DNA of 39,186 bases from an uncultured Nitrososphaerota archaeon (GTDB lineage Archaea > Asgardarchaeota > Njordarchaeia > Njordarchaeales > Panguiarchaeaceae): assembly GCA_964636085.1 (NCBI GenBank), contig CAZWPQ010000015.1:8326-47511 (forward strand). The letters run 5' to 3'. The notes beneath the pieces are model-generated. The model did no database searches. It had not been told where the DNA came from and saw nothing but the letters and a program-made list of their open reading frames with translations. Position 1 is the first letter of the stretch. The number at the start of each line of letters is the position of its first letter. Shown here piece by piece: positions 11,688 to 28,659 of this stretch. A program made the position numbers and the translations under genes.

Positions 11688-11723
11688 GCCCCCCTCCTCC
11701 TATTTTTTTGGGAGGTGATGGGG

Positions 11724-13241
11724 ATGGCCGGGCTTGTTCGATCCGAGTTTTATGGAAAACTTGTAGATATTGCGAAAAGAATGATTTCTCTGTCGTTTGA
11801 CATTACGAAGAATATTAAGATACAAAAACTAAAGAATCATGCATTAAGTCTACTTGCACTGGCGCATGTGAGGATGGGGAATATCGATGCTGGCCTGAAA
11901 ATGTTGGGTGAAATGGACGATGATATTACAAGACTTAGAGCCCTTAAGAAGATATCTATAGAACTAGCAAAAGAGGGGAGGTTACTCTTGGCTATTAGAT
12001 TCATAAATAACTTCTTTATGGACGCCGCTGATGCTAGATTGATAAGGACGGACCTAGATCTAGGACTTATAAGCAATGTATCTAGTGAAACTCTCCAGAA
12101 GGTTTATTCTCTGGATGACCTAGGCATCAGAGACGAATTATTGAGACTAATGGTGCTACAATCAATAGAGGAAGGGAGACTTAGAAGAGCAAAGAAGATA
12201 GTTGACCGCATACTCAATCCGTACATTAAGGCAATGCTACTATCGAGAATTGGTGTTAAATATGCCGAGGACGGAAAAATTGGTCGATCGATACATATGT
12301 TTAATGGCGCTATGGATATTGTGAAGAAACTGTTCGACACTGTCTATATTGAGGGCCGCGATATTTATGACTCAAGAGTTCTATTCAAGAATATGCTGCT
12401 TGCGGAAACAGTTGCTCTTAGCATAATACAGGCAGGTCTTACTGGGTGGGGTAAAGAAATCCTCGACAAAGTGATTAATATAGCCAAAAAAATGGGTGAT
12501 AAAAAATTCAGGGCCAATATAATCTATGCATTAATAAAAAATGCGAGAAACATAGGATATGACATCGAGGTTAACAGGTTGATAGATTTTGCCATAATAG
12601 AGCTGAACAACATAAGCAATCTATATTACAAGACCCAAATACTGAAAGAAATAGCTCTATACTACTTCAAAATCGGTGACCTAAATAAGTTTGTAACATA
12701 CATGGACAAGACTATTGATACGGCACTCCAGTTCGAACCAGGAGAATTTAGGGACAAGCTTCTTGAATGCATAGCTCTTGACTGTATAGATGTAGGTATA
12801 TATGGCTGTCCGCAGCACATAGCTGAGAGAATAGACGATGCGAAAATAAGAGTAGATATCCTATGTAGGTTGTCTGAGGAAATGTTGGAAAGAGGTCACT
12901 ATAACTATGGCCTAGAACTATTGGACAGGGCTCAGAAAATCACGGATAAATATGTAGAACCAAACTATAGGCCATACATATACGGCAAGATCCTATCTGT
13001 ACTTGCCCAGGCAGGCCTATATGATAGAGTAATGAAGCTTTACGATAAATTCATGCATGAAATAGAAAGGCTTGAGGATAACTATAACAGAGCTGTTGTT
13101 CTTGGCATAGCGGCACTATTCATCATAGACAAGCTCCACAAAGAAAATGGAGACAGTACTGAGAATCTTATCATAAAAACTGAGCAGAATATACATAGCC
13201 CCGTGCGGTCATCGTATGGGATAGGAGTAGTGAATTTCTAG
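11724..13241 (+). CDS. TPR-like alpha-helical repeat protein (copy B)
   Basis: Helical repeats; shares ILNPYIK..L...G..Y and DC...GI.GCP..IA.R with copy A. SD GGAGGTGA at 11711 favours ATG 11724 (track 11715). Confidence 0.78.
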   Translation: MAGLVRSEFYGKLVDIAKRMISLSFDITKNIKIQKLKNHALSLLALAHVRMGNIDAGLKMLGEMDDDITRLRALKKISIELAKEGRLLLAIRFINNFFMDAADARLIRTDLDLGLISNVSSETLQKVYSLDDLGIRDELLRLMVLQSIEEGRLRRAKKIVDRILNPYIKAMLLSRIGVKYAEDGKIGRSIHMFNGAMDIVKKLFDTVYIEGRDIYDSRVLFKNMLLAETVALSIIQAGLTGWGKEILDKVINIAKKMGDKKFRANIIYALIKNARNIGYDIEVNRLIDFAIIELNNISNLYYKTQILKEIALYYFKIGDLNKFVTYMDKTIDTALQFEPGEFRDKLLECIALDCIDVGIYGCPQHIAERIDDAKIRVDILCRLSEEMLERGHYNYGLELLDRAQKITDKYVEPNYRPYIYGKILSVLAQAGLYDRVMKLYDKFMHEIERLEDNYNRAVVLGIAALFIIDKLHKENGDSTENLIIKTEQNIHSPVRSSYGIGVVNF

Positions 13242-14353: not shown

Positions 14354-14980
14354 TTAAGCATTTCTCTGTTTTTCATAGATTTTCTTTCCAAAGGCTTTTG
14401 CTGATTTATCCCATATCTCCATTATATGAAAAATGTATGTTGGGGCTCTAAGGGATATTTTTCCTGTTCTCGGGACGGCATGGAAAATATCGTGCATCGC
14501 GTTGGCATATTCGAAATATATGTCATTCGTATGTATTGTCACTTTGGCACATACCATGTATGATGTTTCCGGGGGAGTGAAAAATATTAGTATAGCTTCA
14601 TTAGACTCATTTATATTCGTCCACGTATTCTTTTTAGCCAAATCCAGTGTAAAGAGCTTTGAAAAATCAAGAACATCTGGTCTATATATCTCGTCCAATA
14701 GAAAATTTAACACATCCTCCATGCTGGGTTTTTTAGAGGCAAAAGCTACAATTTTTTCTAGGGTGGTCTCTATATATTCTTCTTTGGGAACAATACCAAC
14801 CATTTTTATGCTCGCATTAAGCCCTGCAGGCCCATAAGTCACTATGGCTGGAAGTGTCCTCGTGAACTCGAGATAGATGTAGGTTTTATCAATACTGCCG
14901 TGGAGCATTTCCTCAATTATTTTTCTTCTTCTCGTAAAAATATAATCGATCCATGCACGAGGAATATTTGATTCTGTCAC
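14354..14980 (-). CDS. Probable FMN-binding split-barrel (pyridoxamine 5'-phosphate oxidase-like) protein
   Basis: PAIVTYGPAGLNASIK, TWTNINE..EAILIFFTPP.TSYMV and YIFHIMEIWDKS fit a split-barrel layout. Confidence 0.55.
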   Translation of the reverse strand: MTESNIPRAWIDYIFTRRRKIIEEMLHGSIDKTYIYLEFTRTLPAIVTYGPAGLNASIKMVGIVPKEEYIETTLEKIVAFASKKPSMEDVLNFLLDEIYRPDVLDFSKLFTLDLAKKNTWTNINESNEAILIFFTPPETSYMVCAKVTIHTNDIYFEYANAMHDIFHAVPRTGKISLRAPTYIFHIMEIWDKSAKAFGKKIYEKQRNA

Positions 14981-14993
14981 TTTAGATCCCTAA

Positions 14994-15052
14994 ATGTTCA
15001 GAGCTTTTAACCATCATCACATTCTCAGAGCTCAGCTTGGCTCATCATGTTG
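14994..15052 (-). ncRNA. Box C/D guide sRNA (predicted tRNA 2'-O-methylation guide)
   Basis: Minus strand: AUGAUGA (C, 15048-15042) gccaagcugagcu CUGA (D', 15028-15025) gaau GUGAUGA (C', 15020-15014) ugguuaaaagcu CUGA (D, 15001-14998). Four consensus boxes with 13- and 12-nt guides, intergenic. Confidence 0.9.
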
Positions 15053-15101
15053 TATGGCGTCTCCAATTTTAAGTTATATTATTGTGTATATTTAAGTATT
15101 T

Positions 15102-15695
15102 ATGGCCAGTATAATATGCGATATGTTATTGGTGTGTATTGTGGCCACAAATAGTAAAATTAGGCATTATTATGCTGCACTTGGCACGGCATTGATGTTG
15201 CTTGGGTTGGTGGCGATATTTGAGTGGGCTCTGTCCCTATACGACTGGTATTGTAGATTAAAAAAGATAGAGGGGGAGGTAAAGATATTTGGTCTAGATC
15301 TAGGCATGATTTTTTCGATAGTTGTTTCAATATTGCTTATTCAAACAGCAATAATTTTTTATAGACTATATTACTTTGAGAGGAGAGATATATTTAGGTT
15401 ATCTAGCATCATAACTATTGGGTATGCATTGACAAGGCTGTGTATCAATGTTGGTCAATTACTGATGGATATATCCGATAATAATCCTTTCCTAAACGTC
15501 TATAATATTGTGGCTCCGTATATAAGCTCAATCGTATGGATACTTGTTGGGACTTCTCTCTACATAATTGGTGACATATTTCTAAATAATAGGCTTGTTA
15601 GAATATCATCATTGTTCCTTGTAGCCATTGTACTATATCCGTTTGGCCTCTTGCTTGCAGGGAAAGAACTTATGAAAGTATCTATTAAGTCATAG
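15102..15695 (+). CDS. Hypothetical integral membrane protein
   Basis: About 5 hydrophobic segments; co-oriented upstream of the ABC genes. Confidence 0.65.
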   Translation: MASIICDMLLVCIVATNSKIRHYYAALGTALMLLGLVAIFEWALSLYDWYCRLKKIEGEVKIFGLDLGMIFSIVVSILLIQTAIIFYRLYYFERRDIFRLSSIITIGYALTRLCINVGQLLMDISDNNPFLNVYNIVAPYISSIVWILVGTSLYIIGDIFLNNRLVRISSLFLVAIVLYPFGLLLAGKELMKVSIKS

Positions 15696-15753: not shown

Positions 15754-16566
15754 TTGCTAAGAAAGCTAAGAGTATTGATGGCTTTTACGTATAGAAATAT
15801 CTATATTGATTTCCAATATAAATTTAAAATGGTCGTGGATTTCTTATGGTCCCTAGCCAATGTAATAGCCTTTGGATTCATGGGCGTAGCTTTTCAATCC
15901 TTCTCGGATATGGACATAAACATAGTCCCATATCAGTTCTTCCTAATTAACACTCTTGTGTGGACTGTTTTCTCCAATCCCTTTATTGATGGGGCCTATA
16001 GCGTCACAGATGAGGCTAGCTGGGGGACAATTGGTTTTATGATAGCCAACAAGATAAAATTTGAGGATATAGCGTTAGGGAGATATTTTGCTACTGGTGT
16101 GAGATTCTTTATAATATTCTTTGCACTGACCCCCCTCGTATATGTTACTGGCGCCATTCACACCACCACAACAATATTCTTGGAGTCCCTGCTTGTAATC
16201 ACTATACTATTCTTCTTTCTGGGTGGCATAGTATTGATTCTTACAGCCCTAACGATAATGTATAAGCGTCTGGGAGAGTTTCCAAGAATAACCCTAACAA
16301 TTATAAGGATACTTTCGACATATTTCACCCCGTTGGCGACTTTTGGCCGTATACATCCATCACTACCAAATATCCTATATCAGTTCCCTATGACGTCGGG
16401 TATTGTGGAGCTCAGAAAAATGCTTATCTTGGGAGATAACTCAGCTTTTTATACTGTTTTAAGGATTTCTATACTTGGAACACTAGTTGTCTATACCATG
16501 GGTCTCTCTCTAATATATATAGCCACGATGGAGTCAAAGAGAAGGGGGACGATAGAGAAATACTAG
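15754..16566 (+). CDS. ABC-2 type transporter permease
   Basis: About 6 TM helices, DEASWGTI motif, LSTYFTP...P...YQFPMTSGIVELR; adjacent to the ABC ATPase. Confidence 0.85.
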   Translation: MLRKLRVLMAFTYRNIYIDFQYKFKMVVDFLWSLANVIAFGFMGVAFQSFSDMDINIVPYQFFLINTLVWTVFSNPFIDGAYSVTDEASWGTIGFMIANKIKFEDIALGRYFATGVRFFIIFFALTPLVYVTGAIHTTTTIFLESLLVITILFFFLGGIVLILTALTIMYKRLGEFPRITLTIIRILSTYFTPLATFGRIHPSLPNILYQFPMTSGIVELRKMLILGDNSAFYTVLRISILGTLVVYTMGLSLIYIATMESKRRGTIEKY

Positions 16567-16577
16567 TGGTGATCTGA

Positions 16578-17537
16578 TTGAAGGGAATAGAGGCTATTGA
16601 GCTCAGGAAAAGTTTCATTGATGGTGGTGAAAGAGTTGAAGTACTGAGCGGGGTTACTTTTTCAATCCCAAAGGGCTCAAACCTTGCAGTAATTGGTCCA
16701 AATGGTAGTGGAAAGACTACATTACTTAAAATACTATCTACTATATTGTCTCCGGATTCGGGAAGGGCGTATATAAGAGGTTTTGATATAATGGAGGAGG
16801 CTGATAATGTGCGCAAGATAATCACATATATAAATCCTGAGTTTAGGCTTCATGAGAGACTTACCGTGAAAAGGACGCTTAAATTTTTTGCCATTATACA
16901 AGATGTGGATTGGCAGTCTTCTATCCCACTACTAGAATTGTTTGGGATAAAACATATGCTTGATTCTCCTGTGGCCGCCCTGAGTACTGGACAGAAAGCA
17001 GCATTAAAGTTTATTATTGGTATGATGAAGAATCCAGAGGTATTGTTTATGGATGAGGTTTTTTCTGGCTTGGATATAAGTCGTGTTGAAAAACTTCTCA
17101 TGATTGTGGATACCCTACTTCAGGAGAAAAGTGTTGATCTAGTAATTGTTGATCATAATCCAGATGTGTTGGATAGGCTATGCGATAAGGTTATTGTAAT
17201 GGAGAGGGGCAAGCCCGTAACTAGAGTCTATTCAACAAAAGAATTACTGAGAAAATTCGATTACAAGTGGGACATAATAGTTACATGGATGAGAGAAATA
17301 GATCAGAATACGCTTGAAGATCTCAAGAGAAGCTATGATTGCAACTGCATCATTATAGGGCCGGATAGAGCCCGAATTTTCGTCAAGGATGACAATATAG
17401 TGAAGGAAATCACTGATTATTTGGTCAAAAATAGTAGAAATGTCATAGAGATTAATACAAGCCCCGTAACGCTAAAGGATTTATTCCTAGAGGTCATAAT
17501 GAAACAGACAAAATTTATGATAGATGAATCTCAATGA
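16578..17537 (+). CDS. ABC transporter ATP-binding protein (exporter type)
   Basis: Walker A GPNGSGKT, signature LSTGQ, Walker B LFMDE, H-loop VDHN. Confidence 0.93.
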   Translation: MKGIEAIELRKSFIDGGERVEVLSGVTFSIPKGSNLAVIGPNGSGKTTLLKILSTILSPDSGRAYIRGFDIMEEADNVRKIITYINPEFRLHERLTVKRTLKFFAIIQDVDWQSSIPLLELFGIKHMLDSPVAALSTGQKAALKFIIGMMKNPEVLFMDEVFSGLDISRVEKLLMIVDTLLQEKSVDLVIVDHNPDVLDRLCDKVIVMERGKPVTRVYSTKELLRKFDYKWDIIVTWMREIDQNTLEDLKRSYDCNCIIIGPDRARIFVKDDNIVKEITDYLVKNSRNVIEINTSPVTLKDLFLEVIMKQTKFMIDESQ

Positions 17538-18242: not shown

Positions 18243-19955
18243 TTACTTAAGTATATTGGCCACCATTAAAATTGACAATGCGATTAGGTTATCTATATCC
18301 CCAATAATTTCTAGAAAGTCCTCCTTCTTGCCCATAATAATCCTAGCTACAGGTCCTCCATAGGAATCGTAGACGAAATATGTATCATCTTTTCTTGATA
18401 TGCTATAACGCTCTATGCCGTATCGATCCTCAACAACATACTTGCCACTCAAGGAACACTTTATTTTTCCTACAAATTCTCCATTCCAATTTTTTATTAT
18501 TGCGTCTGGCTTAACAAGGGCTATTGTGAATTCGATGTTTCCTATGGGGTCGCCTAGTCTGTCAAATATTGTTATCCTGCGGTTTATTATTCCCGAAACC
18601 TTGGCTCTACCGATAATATTTCTGTTCTCGTCCATTATTATGAACTCCTCAATTACTAATCCCAAGAACTTCTTCTTCTTAGCCACTAAGTATTTGTTAA
18701 ATGTAAACATCAATGGTTTTTCCGTAACGACAAGCTCTACTGTTTTTTCCTCTTCTCGCTGTATCTCGTGTTGCGGTATTGCTTCTTTTCTCTCAATATG
18801 CTCTACAAGGCTGGAATCGATATAGGCAACTTGCTCCAGAAAAGCTTTCCTACGTTCTTCATCGTCTATCTTCTGAATCACCTCATCATATGCTCTTCTT
18901 ATGGCTGATCTAAGTATTTCCAATCGCTCCTCTCTTGGGAAGGCTGAATTTATTCTGGAAATTTCTCCACTCATTAGTCCCCTGCTTTTACCTATTAATA
19001 CATCCCTCCAAGCATCATGGGGCAGTTTAAAGGAATAGTCAGGAGTACGGGAAAGATATCTACATACCCTATCAAGCAAATCGCTTAGTAATATTTGCTT
19101 TATGGTATACTCGCGTCCATATATGGCCCTCTTGGCCTCTGCAAATATGGCGTTTAGAAGATCCTGATGAACCTTATATCCAGGAATATCCGCAATGATT
19201 AGGAGGGTCAAAAGCGTCTCCTTCCTCTCTGGGTTCTCCCCCATGATTCTCCACAATATATCATCCACATAATCCAACATACCAGCAGGTATTCTTGACG
19301 CAAAATTTTCATCGAGAATATACCTCATGTTGATCTTTAGATCCCTTATTACTTGCCATATATACACAGGAAGCCCTTGAGCCTTCTCCACAACCATATC
19401 GATGGCTTTATCCTCAATACTTATCCCTTCCCTAAAGGCAAACCTAAGAAGAATCTCCCTCAAGTGGATATCGGACATTGCCCTGAGCTCCATAAGATCA
19501 AAGTACTGGACTGGATCCCCACCAAGCTTAGATGAGAGATACTCCATCTCCTCAACCCTTGCCGTCGCAATGATCATGCCGGCATTATTCGTAATAATGG
19601 ATCTGAGTGTAGTAGAGTTCATCCTAGGTATATCATCATAGAAAAGAATGATTCCTTCCTCCTCATGCCGATTTAGCACATATGTCCCATCAATAATTAG
19701 GCCAATCCCATACCCCTCATCCATAAGCCTCCTCAATATAACCGCCATAAGAGCAGTTTTTCCAGTGCCAGCAGCACCATAAAGTATTACCCTTTTGCCG
19801 GACTTTAAACGCTCCGCAGCCTCCTCAAGTATGAATCCCCGGTTATCATCAATCACAAACTCATCAAAAATATACTGTGGAAGTCTCAGTAGTCCCTCCT
19901 CACCAACAAGCTCTTCTAAGGAAGGTATCCTACGATAATACATGGCTAAGACCAA
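18243..19955 (-). CDS. STAND-like P-loop NTPase with C-terminal LURP-one/scramblase (tubby-like) domain
   Basis: Walker A GAAGTGKT, Walker B ILFYDD, IIATAR strand and GLP motif (EKAQGLPVYI). C-terminal about 150 aa of repeated beta hairpins (IMDENRNIIG, IFDRLGDPIG, IKNWNGEFVG, VYDSYGGPVA). Start may be ATG 19943. Confidence 0.7.
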   Translation of the reverse strand: MVLAMYYRRIPSLEELVGEEGLLRLPQYIFDEFVIDDNRGFILEEAAERLKSGKRVILYGAAGTGKTALMAVILRRLMDEGYGIGLIIDGTYVLNRHEEEGIILFYDDIPRMNSTTLRSIITNNAGMIIATARVEEMEYLSSKLGGDPVQYFDLMELRAMSDIHLREILLRFAFREGISIEDKAIDMVVEKAQGLPVYIWQVIRDLKINMRYILDENFASRIPAGMLDYVDDILWRIMGENPERKETLLTLLIIADIPGYKVHQDLLNAIFAEAKRAIYGREYTIKQILLSDLLDRVCRYLSRTPDYSFKLPHDAWRDVLIGKSRGLMSGEISRINSAFPREERLEILRSAIRRAYDEVIQKIDDEERRKAFLEQVAYIDSSLVEHIERKEAIPQHEIQREEEKTVELVVTEKPLMFTFNKYLVAKKKKFLGLVIEEFIIMDENRNIIGRAKVSGIINRRITIFDRLGDPIGNIEFTIALVKPDAIIKNWNGEFVGKIKCSLSGKYVVEDRYGIERYSISRKDDTYFVYDSYGGPVARIIMGKKEDFLEIIGDIDNLIALSILMVANILK

Positions 19956-23574: not shown

Positions 23575-26500
23575 TCATAGTATCATTATTCCACCATTCA
23601 CATAAAAAGCTATATGCATAAAAGAAATTGCTAGGTGAGCAACCTCATTTTCCTTTCTTGGAATGAAACAGTAGCCCTGATGGATATTAACACAACCCAG
23701 AGGGTTGATTGATATGTCTTGCTCTCCCAGCGGATTATAAGTTACTCTTGTAGACACACTAAATACAGTATATGCCATTGCAGTCCTTCCTGTTTTGTCT
23801 ATGGCTATTATATAGACCGTATGGACGCCGTCAGACACACCACTAAATGTATAGCTTGTAGAGACGCCAACATCGATCCAGTCTCCATCATCAAGTCGCA
23901 CTAAATAGTGGTCTATCCCGCTACCGACGTCGGATCCACTCCATTCTATATATACATCGCTAGTAGTAACTACATCGCCGTCGGAGGGGGTGGATATAGA
24001 GACCGTTGGGCCCGTTAAGTCTACAATAACCTCGATAACGATCTCTATATAGTTGCCAGCAAAATCATATGCTCTTATATATAAATAATTAGGGCCTTCA
24101 GGTAGTCCAGAGAATAGGTAGCTCTCCGCCAATCCGACATCTATCCAGTTAGATCCATCATAGCTAACCTCATAATTATTTATAGATATAACATTGTCGG
24201 ATCCATCCCATGCAACCACCACATCAGATGTTAAAACGTATGAGCTATTAGTTGGCTGCAATATATTTAGTGTCGGTGAAGTCCTATCCACGATTAACAT
24301 CGTATATGTTTGCGAGTAGTGACCAGCCATATCAAAGCCTCTGATGTATATACTATAGATTCCTTCACCAAGTGTCGATGTATCTATTGTATACGATGTT
24401 ACATTGCCAATGTTTTGCCAAGAATCATCTATGAAAATTTCATAGTGATCCATACCACTTACACTATCACCTCCAGACCAACTTATTGTTATACTTGTGC
24501 TACCAGAATTAGATACATACATAGACTGGGCCGCAGATACCATTGGTGGTGATAGATCAATAGTTACAAGTACATAGTCATACACACTGGAGCCATCAGT
24601 GTAGTGTGCAACAACAGTAATATTATGTTGGCCTTCATTTAGCCCCTCAATCTCATAGCATGTTGCTAGACCCACATTGGTAGACGTACCACTATCAACA
24701 ATGACTTCATAATGATCAATACTTCCAGATGCCTGCCAACTCACCACAATTGTATTACCTCCTACATACGCCTGCCCAGTAGCACCTTGCTCTGTAGGGG
24801 AGACTATCTCTATACGCGATAGTAAGAAATTGAGTATGATACCCATACAGTCAGCCCTATCTGTGGCACTATTTATGGCCTCAAATGGGAATGCGAAGTA
24901 TACTAGTCTAAAATCACCACTATATGTAACGCTAGCTCCTAGAGTATTATCTCCTCCATAGCATAGTGCTAGTGTTGACCCTCCTGTTGGGGATATGTCG
25001 GATGGGTAATTATTGTTGTCGGCACCATCGCCCCCGCTGAGGAAGTATATCTTGCCATCAAATATTGTTCCAGATAATCCAGTAACATTATCAATATTTG
25101 TATTGTCGGCCTCATATATGGCTTTTAGGTATGTCTGGAACCAAGTAGTATTGTCACTATATATATCATAGCCGATATCCTGACCAGATATGAATAGGCT
25201 TCCGCCATCCTTTAGGAATTTCTCTAGTATGTTACGATCATCCTGCGTGAGTGTCGTTGTATAGTCCTTGCCAGTAAACCATATTACTACATCATAGGCT
25301 TTTAGTAAATCAGCAGAAGGGGCTTCAGATTCGTTATAATGCCATAGATCATAGTCCACACCCTCACTATATCCCAGATCATTTAGTGCCGATGTATAAT
25401 ATAGTTCATAGTCTTCACCTTTATCGTCGTCGATTACTAGAATATATGTTCCAGATGTCTTTACGAACACGGTTACGGAGGATAATGCAGTATTTCCATC
25501 ATTATCAGCGGCCTCAGCTATTAATGTATGGGAGCCAAAGCTCAGTGTGGAGGCATCTAAAGTAGTCTCCCAATATCCTGTGGATGGATTATACGACATG
25601 TCACTATAATATGATCCATCGACTTTCAATACAACACTTGTTATTGATCCATCCTCATCAGTAGCATTGACCTGAACAAGTGTATCGCCCTCTATAACAT
25701 CACCACTTAGGGGCGTAACGAAACTAACTATTGGTGCGCCAGGCTGAGGCATTAGGAAGTTTAATATTCTTTGCATACAGTCTGCTCTGTCAGCGGCGGC
25801 ATTTATTGCTTCAAACGGAAATGCAAAGTACACAAGTCTAAATGTGCCCTCATATGTGACGGCTGCACCGAGTGTTGTATCCGTTCCATAGTACATTGCT
25901 AGCACGGATCCGCCAGTTGGAGATATATCTGATGGATAGTTATTGTTGTCGGCACCGTCCCCCGCAGCGAGGCTATATGTGACGCCATCAAATATGGTGC
26001 CAGAGGAACCAGTTACTGTATCGACATTTGTATCGTCGGTCTCATAGACAGCCTTTAGATATGTCTCATACCATGTTGGATCATCGCCATATATATCATA
26101 GCCGATATCTTGACCTGATATAAATAGTGAGCCACCGTCATCTAAATATTCGGAAAGTACGGTTCTGTCGGTAGCGGTGAGTGTTGTTGAGTAGTCGTCT
26201 CCAGTGAACCATATTACAGCATCCCTTCCGTACAATACATCTGATGTAACAGAACCATCCGTCTGCACACACCATACTTCAAAATCTTTACCTTGAACAT
26301 AGCCTAGGTCGATCAAAGCCTGAATGTAGTATGTCTCATAGCTATCTCCAGTATCGTCATCTACGACAAGTATTGGTGCAATTTGGTTGTCGACCTCTAC
26401 GCTTATTATCGCTCTATCCTCACCGCCATTTGTTTGATTTGCTATAACAACGAGATCATATTGGCCATCGGAGTATATAGTTGTATCAAGGTATCCTTCG

Positions 26501-28659
26501 TAATAGCCACTGGTGGTGTTGTATTGGAGTGTTATAAACGGTCCTTGATAAGTATCATTTTCTAGTCTTGCTAGGACTGTATCTACGGATATGCCAGTAG
26601 TTTTGACATTTACTTGGGCGGATACCTTAGTTGTATCTCTTATTTTTGCACCGTTACTAGGCTCTACTATAGATACGCCTAGATTATCAATTCTATAGGT
26701 TGCTGTGATGCTGGTAATATTTCCTCCAGTATCGGACGCGTTTACTCTAATATCTATATCGCCATCATCATAGTATGTAGTATCCCAAGTATACTCGTAA
26801 TATCCCGTAGTAGCATTATAAGTCATATCATACCATGTCCCCTTTATCTCCACCTTGACCCATGCAATACCATCCTCATCAGTAGCGTTTACCTGTAGAA
26901 TAACAGCCCCACTTATCGTTGATCCAGGGGAGGGATTAATGATTTTGACTATGGGGTACCCAGACATGTATTCCAGTGGTAAATCAGAGACATCATCATC
27001 ACAATAATAGTACAATTGTTTTATTATTGTGTCCGTCGAATCATACATCTCAAACCTTAATGTATAGACGCTAGGTGTAGATGGCATATCCAAGTCTATA
27101 GAAATAATATCAGTATCCACACCACCACTAACAGAGGTCAACCCTGATTGTCCTAGAGAAAAATCATTTGATCCATCGCTACCAAATACCTTTACATATA
27201 CTGACATTGTTGAATCTGAGTCTAGATCTATATACACAGTGCCAGATTCATAATATCCATTGTTATTGCTATCAGAACCTGAGAATGATATATCATATGA
27301 CCATAAATCAACATTGTTGCCCGTTCTTTTCATTGTAAATTCATCCCATTGATGATGAGCCGACATAAGTATATTATCATAGCTTGAATCATATGATGAT
27401 GGGAAGTTTGCCGATAAACCATGTGCACTTGGATGGCCAGATAGATGCCCACCATACATAATAGATGCATTTACAGCATCTATGGTATCATCAATAAGGC
27501 TTATCAGGTCCGAATCAGAAACTTCACCCTTCAGTAGCTCTAAGAAATGAATTAGATCTTTCTCATTGGAGTAATAGAAGGTTTCTGCTCCACTTACAGC
27601 GTTGCTTATAGCTGTTGACAAAGAGCCATAGTTCCTAATCAATTCTCCCACCAACCTATCCAACTTCCTAAATGTCACCTTTGCTAAAGCTGACATATTA
27701 ATCGCTGACTGAGTAGCAGATGTATCCGTACCTTGACTACCACCATTATACGACTCCACATACTTCTGTGCTATTAATACTGCAAAATCCGCGGGGGACA
27801 TTGCAGGGTTATTAACGAGAGGATCTAATATGTCATCATATGGCCAGCCATCAGCACCCTCGGTCTCCTGCGAGAAGACAACATAATCCACATAGTCTCT
27901 ACATTGATACGCGACCTCAATCATACCCATTAGGCATGCATCAAAGCCGATAATATCTAGTTTTACTCCTAGGTTATTATATATTGTCTCAAGAGCGGTT
28001 CTTAGCTCATTTAGATTTATGTTATCGCCCCCGTTGTCATCGTCCCAACATACACCACTTAAACCACCACCGTGATCCCATAATATCAAGGCATAGTGTT
28101 CGGCAGGATAGTTATTTACGCACCAGGTCATAAAATCTACAATTGTTTGTGGATTACCCATATTTCTCTCTCCCCATGTCTCATTAGCATTGGTATCGTA
28201 GGGCTCGTCTCCTTGATCCACATAGAATAAGCGTGTGTCCGTCCAGTCTCCATAGCTAGTATCATATCCACTGATCCTATCCATAAGAACTATTATGGCT
28301 ACATCTGTTGTCGATCCAACCGATGACATCTCCAAGAAGTCTTCTATTCCATACGACTCTAGATTATTGGCGGCGTCAAGATATACCATAAATGTCCATT
28401 GTCTAGTTTGCCTAGCTTTAATCTTTGGGTATTTTGGTACTCTGAGATTATTAATATTTCCATCTTTATGAAATATTCCAAATTCCTCAGATCCAGGAGG
28501 GCCTAAGTGTGGATAGTATACCTCATGTCTTGATGTAGTATTATTTGCCATCCTTAAGGGATTGGTGTTCTGTTTCCCATCAATAATTTTGCCTGCTACG
28601 AATATGGTAGATACAAGAATAACTGATATTAGGATGGATCTCAAGTTTCTTGATACCAT
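23575..28659 (-). CDS. Large secreted clostripain-family (peptidase C11) protease with Ig-like domains and two repeated alpha/beta modules
   Basis: Signal peptide; WTFMVYLDAANNL, WDHGGG (catalytic His), GFDACLMG..E (catalytic Cys). Multiple P.V.I..P..G Ig-like repeats and two copies of ILV.DDD...VIWFTG.DY.TTLT...GGSLFISGQDIGYDI. Confidence 0.9.
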   Translation of the reverse strand: MVSRNLRSILISVILVSTIFVAGKIIDGKQNTNPLRMANNTTSRHEVYYPHLGPPGSEEFGIFHKDGNINNLRVPKYPKIKARQTRQWTFMVYLDAANNLESYGIEDFLEMSSVGSTTDVAIIVLMDRISGYDTSYGDWTDTRLFYVDQGDEPYDTNANETWGERNMGNPQTIVDFMTWCVNNYPAEHYALILWDHGGGLSGVCWDDDNGGDNINLNELRTALETIYNNLGVKLDIIGFDACLMGMIEVAYQCRDYVDYVVFSQETEGADGWPYDDILDPLVNNPAMSPADFAVLIAQKYVESYNGGSQGTDTSATQSAINMSALAKVTFRKLDRLVGELIRNYGSLSTAISNAVSGAETFYYSNEKDLIHFLELLKGEVSDSDLISLIDDTIDAVNASIMYGGHLSGHPSAHGLSANFPSSYDSSYDNILMSAHHQWDEFTMKRTGNNVDLWSYDISFSGSDSNNNGYYESGTVYIDLDSDSTMSVYVKVFGSDGSNDFSLGQSGLTSVSGGVDTDIISIDLDMPSTPSVYTLRFEMYDSTDTIIKQLYYYCDDDVSDLPLEYMSGYPIVKIINPSPGSTISGAVILQVNATDEDGIAWVKVEIKGTWYDMTYNATTGYYEYTWDTTYYDDGDIDIRVNASDTGGNITSITATYRIDNLGVSIVEPSNGAKIRDTTKVSAQVNVKTTGISVDTVLARLENDTYQGPFITLQYNTTSGYYEGYLDTTIYSDGQYDLVVIANQTNGGEDRAIISVEVDNQIAPILVVDDDTGDSYETYYIQALIDLGYVQGKDFEVWCVQTDGSVTSDVLYGRDAVIWFTGDDYSTTLTATDRTVLSEYLDDGGSLFISGQDIGYDIYGDDPTWYETYLKAVYETDDTNVDTVTGSSGTIFDGVTYSLAAGDGADNNNYPSDISPTGGSVLAMYYGTDTTLGAAVTYEGTFRLVYFAFPFEAINAAADRADCMQRILNFLMPQPGAPIVSFVTPLSGDVIEGDTLVQVNATDEDGSITSVVLKVDGSYYSDMSYNPSTGYWETTLDASTLSFGSHTLIAEAADNDGNTALSSVTVFVKTSGTYILVIDDDKGEDYELYYTSALNDLGYSEGVDYDLWHYNESEAPSADLLKAYDVVIWFTGKDYTTTLTQDDRNILEKFLKDGGSLFISGQDIGYDIYSDNTTWFQTYLKAIYEADNTNIDNVTGLSGTIFDGKIYFLSGGDGADNNNYPSDISPTGGSTLALCYGGDNTLGASVTYSGDFRLVYFAFPFEAINSATDRADCMGIILNFLLSRIEIVSPTEQGATGQAYVGGNTIVVSWQASGSIDHYEVIVDSGTSTNVGLATCYEIEGLNEGQHNITVVAHYTDGSSVYDYVLVTIDLSPPMVSAAQSMYVSNSGSTSITISWSGGDSVSGMDHYEIFIDDSWQNIGNVTSYTIDTSTLGEGIYSIYIRGFDMAGHYSQTYTMLIVDRTSPTLNILQPTNSSYVLTSDVVVAWDGSDNVISINNYEVSYDGSNWIDVGLAESYLFSGLPEGPNYLYIRAYDFAGNYIEIVIEVIVDLTGPTVSISTPSDGDVVTTSDVYIEWSGSDVGSGIDHYLVRLDDGDWIDVGVSTSYTFSGVSDGVHTVYIIAIDKTGRTAMAYTVFSVSTRVTYNPLGEQDISINPLGCVNIHQGYCFIPRKENEVAHLAISFMHIAFYVNGGIMIL

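Follow-up and report, generated by a model that had tools for sequence, protein, structure and literature searches.

Genomic Context of the sRNA Locus

The window, i.e., the whole stretch of 39,186 nucleotides that was analyzed, carries on its minus strand a predicted box C/D sRNA, the core of which extends over 51 nt from box C to box D (positions 14998–15048) and was delineated by a box pattern scan. The mature RNA probably reaches a few nucleotides beyond this core at both ends. A spacer of 17 nt with a Shine-Dalgarno-like purine run (14981–14997, minus strand) separates box D from the GTG start of a 208-aa ORF on the same strand (14354–14980), while on the other side an AT-rich intergenic stretch (15052–15101), which is shared with a divergent ORF (15102–15695), probably contains TATA-type promoters as judged by eye. 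Further genes noted in the window encode an ABC ATPase together with a 270-aa neighbor (15754–17537, plus strand), a 508-aa protein without Pfam match (11715–13241, plus strand), a 570-aa protein with a weak match to STAND NTPases (18243–19955, minus strand) and a protein of 1694 aa (23575–28659, minus strand).

An earlier sequence-only reading of this DNA had described the product of the downstream ORF as putatively FMN-binding. This assignment retains a weak lead to PNPOx_N (FMN split-barrel), stemming from 10% of one look-alike cluster, but finds no match in Pfam, NCBIfam or PDB. On two metagenomic contigs the sRNA is located directly upstream of an ORF of 62–63% identity, with a candidate start 17 nt past box D and a clear Shine-Dalgarno motif, GGTGA, in between. 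Co-transcription of the sRNA with the downstream ORF is therefore plausible from gene order. A functional tie is not implied, since in GTDB relatives the ORF is absent from a range of roughly 1.5 kb around the sRNA.

The host genome is a metagenome-assembled genome (MAG) of 2.4 Mb and 83% completeness. Njordarchaeia are predicted thermophiles, the phylogenetic placement of which is disputed (PMC12411855 vs. PMC12222021). Fibrillarin, Nop5 and L7Ae, the protein partners of box C/D sRNAs, are all encoded, as are Elp3, two PP-loop ATPases, among which there may be a tRNA thiolase, and one SpoU-family methylase of 248 aa, a length that we take to point to TrmJ rather than TrmL. rRNA genes are not present among the assembled contigs. 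Many of the tRNA genes contain introns, some of them at non-canonical sites, and are mislabeled by ARAGORN; genes reported as 'Pyl' and 'SeC' are read here as Gln(CUG) and Asn, respectively. Two near-identical genes for tRNA-Gln(UUG) are present.

Architecture of the Box C/D sRNA

In the order C-D'-C'-D, the element comprises box C ATGATGA (RUGAUGA; 15042–15048), a D' guide of 13 nt (15029–15041), box D' CTGA (CUGA; 15025–15028), a spacer of 4 nt, box C' GTGATGA (GUGAUGA; 15014–15020), a D guide of 12 nt (15002–15013) and box D CTGA (CUGA; 14998–15001), all on the minus strand. Box C is kept in an alignment of orthologs, and boxes D', C' and D were recovered in a scan that allowed zero mismatches. 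The four perfect boxes, the sequences of both guides and the distance of 17 nt between the end of box D and the GTG at 14980 had been given in the same way by the sequence-only reading and were confirmed when the DNA was read again. Elements with four mismatch-free boxes are rare, with nine in the entire host genome including the sRNA described here and none in each of three locally shuffled versions of that genome.

The arrangement agrees with that of archaeal box C/D sRNAs in general: the terminal motifs are a 5'-proximal box C (RUGAUGA) and a 3'-proximal box D (CUGA), a D' and a C' box lie between them, guides of 13 and 12 nt compare with a usual range of 10–13 nt, and 51 nt from box to box compare with 50–70 nt overall. 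Pairing of at least 8–10 Watson-Crick base pairs, including one at the N+5 position, is found with tRNA-Lys(UUU), which offers 10 bp around U34 and 9 bp around C13, as detailed below. No part of the window matched an Rfam family at gathering score (best hit sR3, 25.2 bits vs. 41), and the same holds true for six homologous loci; the sub-threshold matches of the sRNA are to the archaeal C/D families sR3 and snoPyro_CD. The folding energy is not unusual (z = -0.96). Archaeal C/D sRNAs are built on protein-bound K-turns, and for this reason folding energy is uninformative for this class; minimum free energy folding and a sigma-70 promoter scan are unsuited to an archaeal C/D RNA and its host. Judged by its sequence features, the element is a genuine archaeal box C/D guide sRNA that falls outside every named Rfam family.

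The D Guide and Wobble Position U34 of tRNA-Lys(UUU)

The gene for tRNA-Lys(UUU) of the host is located on contig C24 (11089–11161, minus strand) and does not contain an intron. The D guide forms 10 Watson-Crick base pairs with nucleotides 31–40 of this tRNA plus a terminal G-U pair at nucleotide 30; the complementarity to the anticodon arm predicted by the sequence-only reading thus holds for this stretch but not for the full 12 nt of the guide. According to the N+5 rule as stated in PMC7089733, where 8–10 bp are given as the range for efficient methylation, the target nucleotide is U34, precisely the site that had been proposed. Pairing with any other host tRNA amounts to at most 6 bp, such that tRNA-Lys(UUU) is the sole tRNA target, and only five of 3000 shuffled D guides reached 10 Watson-Crick base pairs on any tRNA. 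A comparison with 23S rRNA from three relatives and one 16S rRNA did not reveal any match of 7 or more Watson-Crick pairs. Variants of the D guide in relatives mostly keep the pairing: an A to G exchange opposite U36 results in a G-U pair in genomes G002 and G007, the exception being G004, in which the guide is mismatched at A37. Taken together, the D guide very probably directs methylation of U34 in tRNA-Lys(UUU).

The D' Guide and Position C13

With the host's own tRNA-Lys(UUU), the D' guide forms 9 Watson-Crick base pairs at nucleotides 9–17, followed by a bulged A and two further pairs, and the N+5 rule points to C13. Pairing over 8–9 nt in the same register is also seen with the D arms of tRNAs for Lys(CUU), Ala(CGC), Thr(UGU), Tyr and Asn. 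The guide is, hence, not specific for lysine tRNAs, while tRNA-Lys(UUU) is its best tRNA target. A perfect 13-nt tRNA complement had been expected by the sequence-only reading, which had named its absence as a ground for refutation. Such a complement is indeed absent from all tRNAs found in the assembly, and the sole 12-nt match resides on contig C19 outside any tRNA. This outcome is not fatal to the C13 site because 9 bp are within the range of 8–10 bp for efficient methylation (PMC7089733). In addition, a perfect target may be hidden, since genes for tRNAs Leu(UAA), Pro(UGG) and Thr(CGU) are apparently missing from the assembly and one Arg gene contains an assembly gap. The D' guide did not match 23S rRNA of three relatives over more than 8 Watson-Crick base pairs.

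By itself, the D' match is weak, as 246 of 3000 shuffles reach 9 Watson-Crick base pairs; placement of both guides on one and the same tRNA did not occur in any of 3000 shuffles. The proposal of C13 as a second site, possibly on the same tRNA, is supported by the 9 Watson-Crick base pairs on the best tRNA target, and it appears reasonably probable that the D' guide directs methylation of C13. Another suggestion, that the AGCU ending common to both guides hints at an internal duplication, had to be abandoned, as orthologous D' guides end differently; the shared AGCU is explained by the tRNA, which carries GCU at both positions 10–12 and 31–33.

Conservation Within the Njordarchaeales

Among 14 genomes of the order, eight carry the guide for tRNA-Lys and six the two-guide design, i.e., the host and G001, G002, G004, G007 and G011, always with the Lys guide at D and the D-arm guide at D'. 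In these six genomes, which represent three families, the D' guide has a constant core and register, with a G at N+5 facing C13, while flanks and spacer vary. Nine metagenomic contigs, some probably from the same species, add copies with identical D' core and register. This comparison across genomes argues more strongly for the C13 site than the D' match within the host does. In G003, the D' guide is degenerate (6 nt), and in G005 the Lys guide is situated at D' and combined with a different partner guide.

The variable 5' part of the D' guide changes in step with the D loop of tRNA-Lys(UUU) in the respective genome. In G001 and G004, pairing of the guide extends over 9 nt with tRNA-Lys(UUU) of the same genome and over 6 nt with other loop types, and in G002 over 10 nt with its own tRNA-Lys(UUU) compared to 8 nt with most others. 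For the G011 guide, 10 nt are paired with tRNA-Lys from two family mates, its own tRNA-Lys not having been found, and the guide of G007 prefers Lys(CUU) (10 nt) to Lys(UUU) (8 nt). This covariation of guide and D loop is suggestive of tRNA-Lys(UUU) as the target of the D' guide; it does not carry statistical weight because the genomes are related and only about three D-loop types exist.

The gene for tRNA-Lys(UUU) itself differs in intron content among members of the order (L143, L154, L155, L149, L150, L151). The host (G000), G003, G007 and G010 lack an intron. In G001, G002 and G004 it follows the anticodon stem on the 3' side, and in G005, G009 and G012 it is inserted at position 37/38. Where it begins with ACC, as in G005 and G009, the U34 guide pairs with the precursor as well as with the spliced tRNA. 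In G001, the genes for 23S (plus strand) and 16S rRNA (minus strand) are convergent and do not share an operon (C11, 390761–396110), with tRNA-Lys(UUU) about 2 kb away.

Occurrence of the Wobble Guide in Other Archaea

Beyond the Njordarchaeales, the class of the Desulfurococcaceae MAG G400, which we infer to be the Thermoproteia, has box C followed by the core of the Lys guide in 115 of its 121 genomes, with no occurrence of a reversed control. When 30 of the loci in this class were inspected by eye, 29 continued as C/D sRNAs. Strict patterns applied to all GTDB genomes yielded roughly a dozen MAGs of Desulfurococcales, Ignisphaera and Thermoproteota that contain full sRNAs with the Lys guide, and a matching loop on tRNA-Lys(UUU) was present in four of five guide-bearing genomes checked outside the order. 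Partner guides of these crenarchaeal sRNAs are mostly D-loop guides in another register, directed at about C16/C17, or are unrelated; among 41 crenarchaeal sites, a C13-type partner was never encountered and a D-loop-type motif follows at 26. The strict pattern retrieved full sRNAs only from Njordarchaeales when applied to 400 genomes of the host phylum, a search that elements with degenerate boxes escape. Candidate Lys-U34 guides with degenerate boxes were seen in one family with small genomes that belongs to the same phylum but not to the Njordarchaeales (L327 in G014, C1 near 574.66 kb; L006 in G025, C2 near 85.35 kb). A MAG labeled as Woesearchaeota (G404; L183, L254) contains a perfect Lys-U34 sRNA together with a GC-rich, crenarchaeal-looking tRNA-Lys and is possibly mislabeled or mis-binned.

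The dual targeting of a lysine tRNA had been put forward as possibly new. For the wobble guide this does not hold, as it is widespread and contained in published sRNAs, while the C13 partner was found only in Njordarchaeales. We tentatively suggest, as a proposal for which the case is still somewhat short of balanced, that U34 methylation of tRNA-Lys(UUU) may be RNA-guided in nearly all Thermoproteia and Njordarchaeales and that the latter add a lineage-specific guide for Cm13. A guide common to crenarchaea and Njordarchaeales does not decide the placement of the latter, because it would result from thermophily, from transfer, from convergent evolution toward a 10-nt target and from old inheritance alike. 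The high conservation across the Thermoproteia would make a clean knockout test in Sulfolobus feasible.

Proposed Function and Alternative Explanations

We consider a trans-acting double-guide sRNA for U34 and C13 of tRNA-Lys(UUU) as the best explanation of the pairing and conservation described above, and a likely one. As established for the class, L7Ae would bind the C/D and C'/D' motifs, upon which Nop5 and fibrillarin would assemble. The D guide would open the anticodon arm of tRNA-Lys(UUU), pair with nucleotides 31–40 and position fibrillarin at the 2'-OH of U34, while the D' guide would pair with nucleotides 9–17 of the D arm and position fibrillarin at C13, preferentially on this tRNA; tRNAs whose D arm contains GCUCAG may serve as further substrates of the D' guide. 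The substrate is probably a nascent or unfolded precursor tRNA, since both target sites are paired in the folded molecule. Um34 would probably be formed on an Elp3-derived xm5U base. It would favor the C3'-endo sugar conformation and thereby stabilize the U-rich codon-anticodon helix of lysine codons at high temperature. The C3'-endo conformation is also favored by s2U (PMC4033218).

Other explanations concern mainly the D' guide. That it acts as a general D-arm guide for C13 of Lys(CUU), Ala, Thr, Tyr and Asn tRNAs, sharing of one tRNA by both guides then being partly incidental, is compatible with the double-guide reading and represents a serious, if doubtful, possibility: pairing over 8–9 nt with five other host tRNAs, the preference of the G007 guide for Lys(CUU) and the precedent of a multi-tRNA guide, Pae sR64 (PMC6009581), all fit, but the longest D' run is with the own tRNA-Lys(UUU) in the host, G001, G002 and G004, and loops of the Lys(CUU) type reach only 6 nt in G001 and G004. 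Less likely, in our view unlikely, is a functional D guide for U34 accompanied by a D' guide that is an orphan or merely a helper holding the tRNA open without C13 methylation. An orphan second guide occurs in about 80% of the tRNA-targeting Pyrobaculum sRNAs (PMC6009581), the partner guide varies by lineage and is degenerate in G003, and the D' match on its own is not significant. Against this stands the fixation of the D' core and its N+5 register in six genomes from three families and in nine contigs; a pure helper would not require a fixed N+5 register.

A target near nucleotide 39 of 16S rRNA instead of tRNA appears improbable for the D' guide of the host species. It could be judged on the 16S rRNA of the congener G001, that of the host being missing from the assembly, and here the extra A that is bulged on tRNA-Lys lengthens the pairing to 9 Watson-Crick pairs and one G-U pair. 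Orthologous guides, however, form only 7 Watson-Crick base pairs at this 16S site, and the G001 guide pairs over 7 nt with its own 16S rRNA compared to 9 with its own tRNA-Lys. Hardly credible at all is the view that no sRNA exists and that the downstream gene carries a box-like sequence by chance in its 5' UTR or promoter. The missing Rfam match at gathering score and the inconspicuous folding energy would be in line with it. The zero-mismatch scan against shuffled genomes, the pairing with tRNA, the class-wide occurrence of the guide, the conservation in orthologs and the occurrence of homologous guides in sequenced, expressed sRNAs all speak against it.

Comparison With Known Systems

The closest counterparts are Sac-sR26 from Sulfolobus acidocaldarius, TtesR106 from Thermoproteus tenax and IHOsR154 from Ignicoccus hospitalis, in which an identical 10-nt guide core for the anticodon loop precedes a D or D' box with unchanged register. 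Each of them is covered by RNA-seq reads (PMC4644070, Additional file 1), and tRNA targets were not catalogued in that study (Dennis et al., 2015; PMC4644070). In TtesR106, the guide core is located at D as in the host sRNA, with a D-loop-like guide at D'. Partner guides of the three sRNAs differ from that of the host sRNA, such that orthology does not extend to the entire sRNAs. Given the identity of the guides, tRNA-Lys would be a likely target also for these catalogued sRNAs. In the literature searched, we found neither an assignment of any guide to U34 of tRNA-Lys nor a report of Um34 in archaeal tRNA-Lys or of Cm13 in archaeal tRNA.

The host genome contains other wobble guides as well. 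A guide on contig C7 (near 78.25 kb, plus strand) fits U34 of Gln(UUG), and a C/D guide on C1 (near 154.0 kb, plus strand) fits C34 of Trp(CCA). On C6 (near 58.3 kb, plus strand), the D guide of a further sRNA fits C34 of Leu(CAA), while its D' guide forms 11 Watson-Crick base pairs with the apparent intron of a Met-type tRNA (C6, 60176–60277); the genes for Leu(CAA) and the Met-type tRNA form one cluster about 2 kb from this sRNA. Other Njordarchaeales carry wobble guides (L206, L210, L211, L212, L214) that are read as directed at U34 of Val(UAC), Thr(UGU) and Glu(UUC). In the host genome, the Lys guide belongs to a group of position-34 guides.

Protein-only enzymes, TrmL in bacteria and Trm7/FTSJ1 in eukaryotes, generate the same product at position 34 without guide RNA, and tRNA-Lys(UUU) is not among the substrates that a review table names for them. 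RNA-guided wobble ribose methylation is exemplified by sR-tMet from Haloferax (Cm34) and by the guide in the intron of euryarchaeal pre-tRNA-Trp, which in addition serves two sites on one tRNA (Cm34, Um39) as proposed here. These guides are intron-encoded or act on C34, whereas the host sRNA gene is free-standing and the host tRNA-Lys(UUU) intronless. A trans-acting C/D sRNA for Um34 of a U34-containing tRNA is found in Sulfolobus sR14, which is directed at tRNA-Gln(UUG) and was described along with a guide for G18 (Ziesche et al., 2004, cited by Wolff et al., 2020, PMC7668247); it differs from the host sRNA in acting on another tRNA and in lacking a C13 site. For S. acidocaldarius tRNA-Gln(UUG), Um34/s2Um34 was detected by mass spectrometry in agreement with the predicted guide, and the legible part of the table in the same publication does not contain a row for tRNA-Lys (PMC7668247).

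In the Pyrobaculum survey (Lui et al., 2018; PMC6009581), the wobble guides sR27, sR45, sR46, sR26 and sR51 each act on position 34 of a single tRNA, with Trp, Gln, Val, Thr and Glu but not Lys as targets in the main text, and guides for two sites on the same tRNA are rare (sR46, sR61, sR123, sR126). The mechanism proposed for the host sRNA is itself textbook, and the sRNA adds to a well-known class. By this addition, Lys(UUU) would join the archaeal tRNAs with predicted guide-RNA-dependent wobble ribose methylation, and the C13 partner would contribute a minor, lineage-specific variation as well as another example of the rare design in which two guides of one sRNA serve one tRNA.
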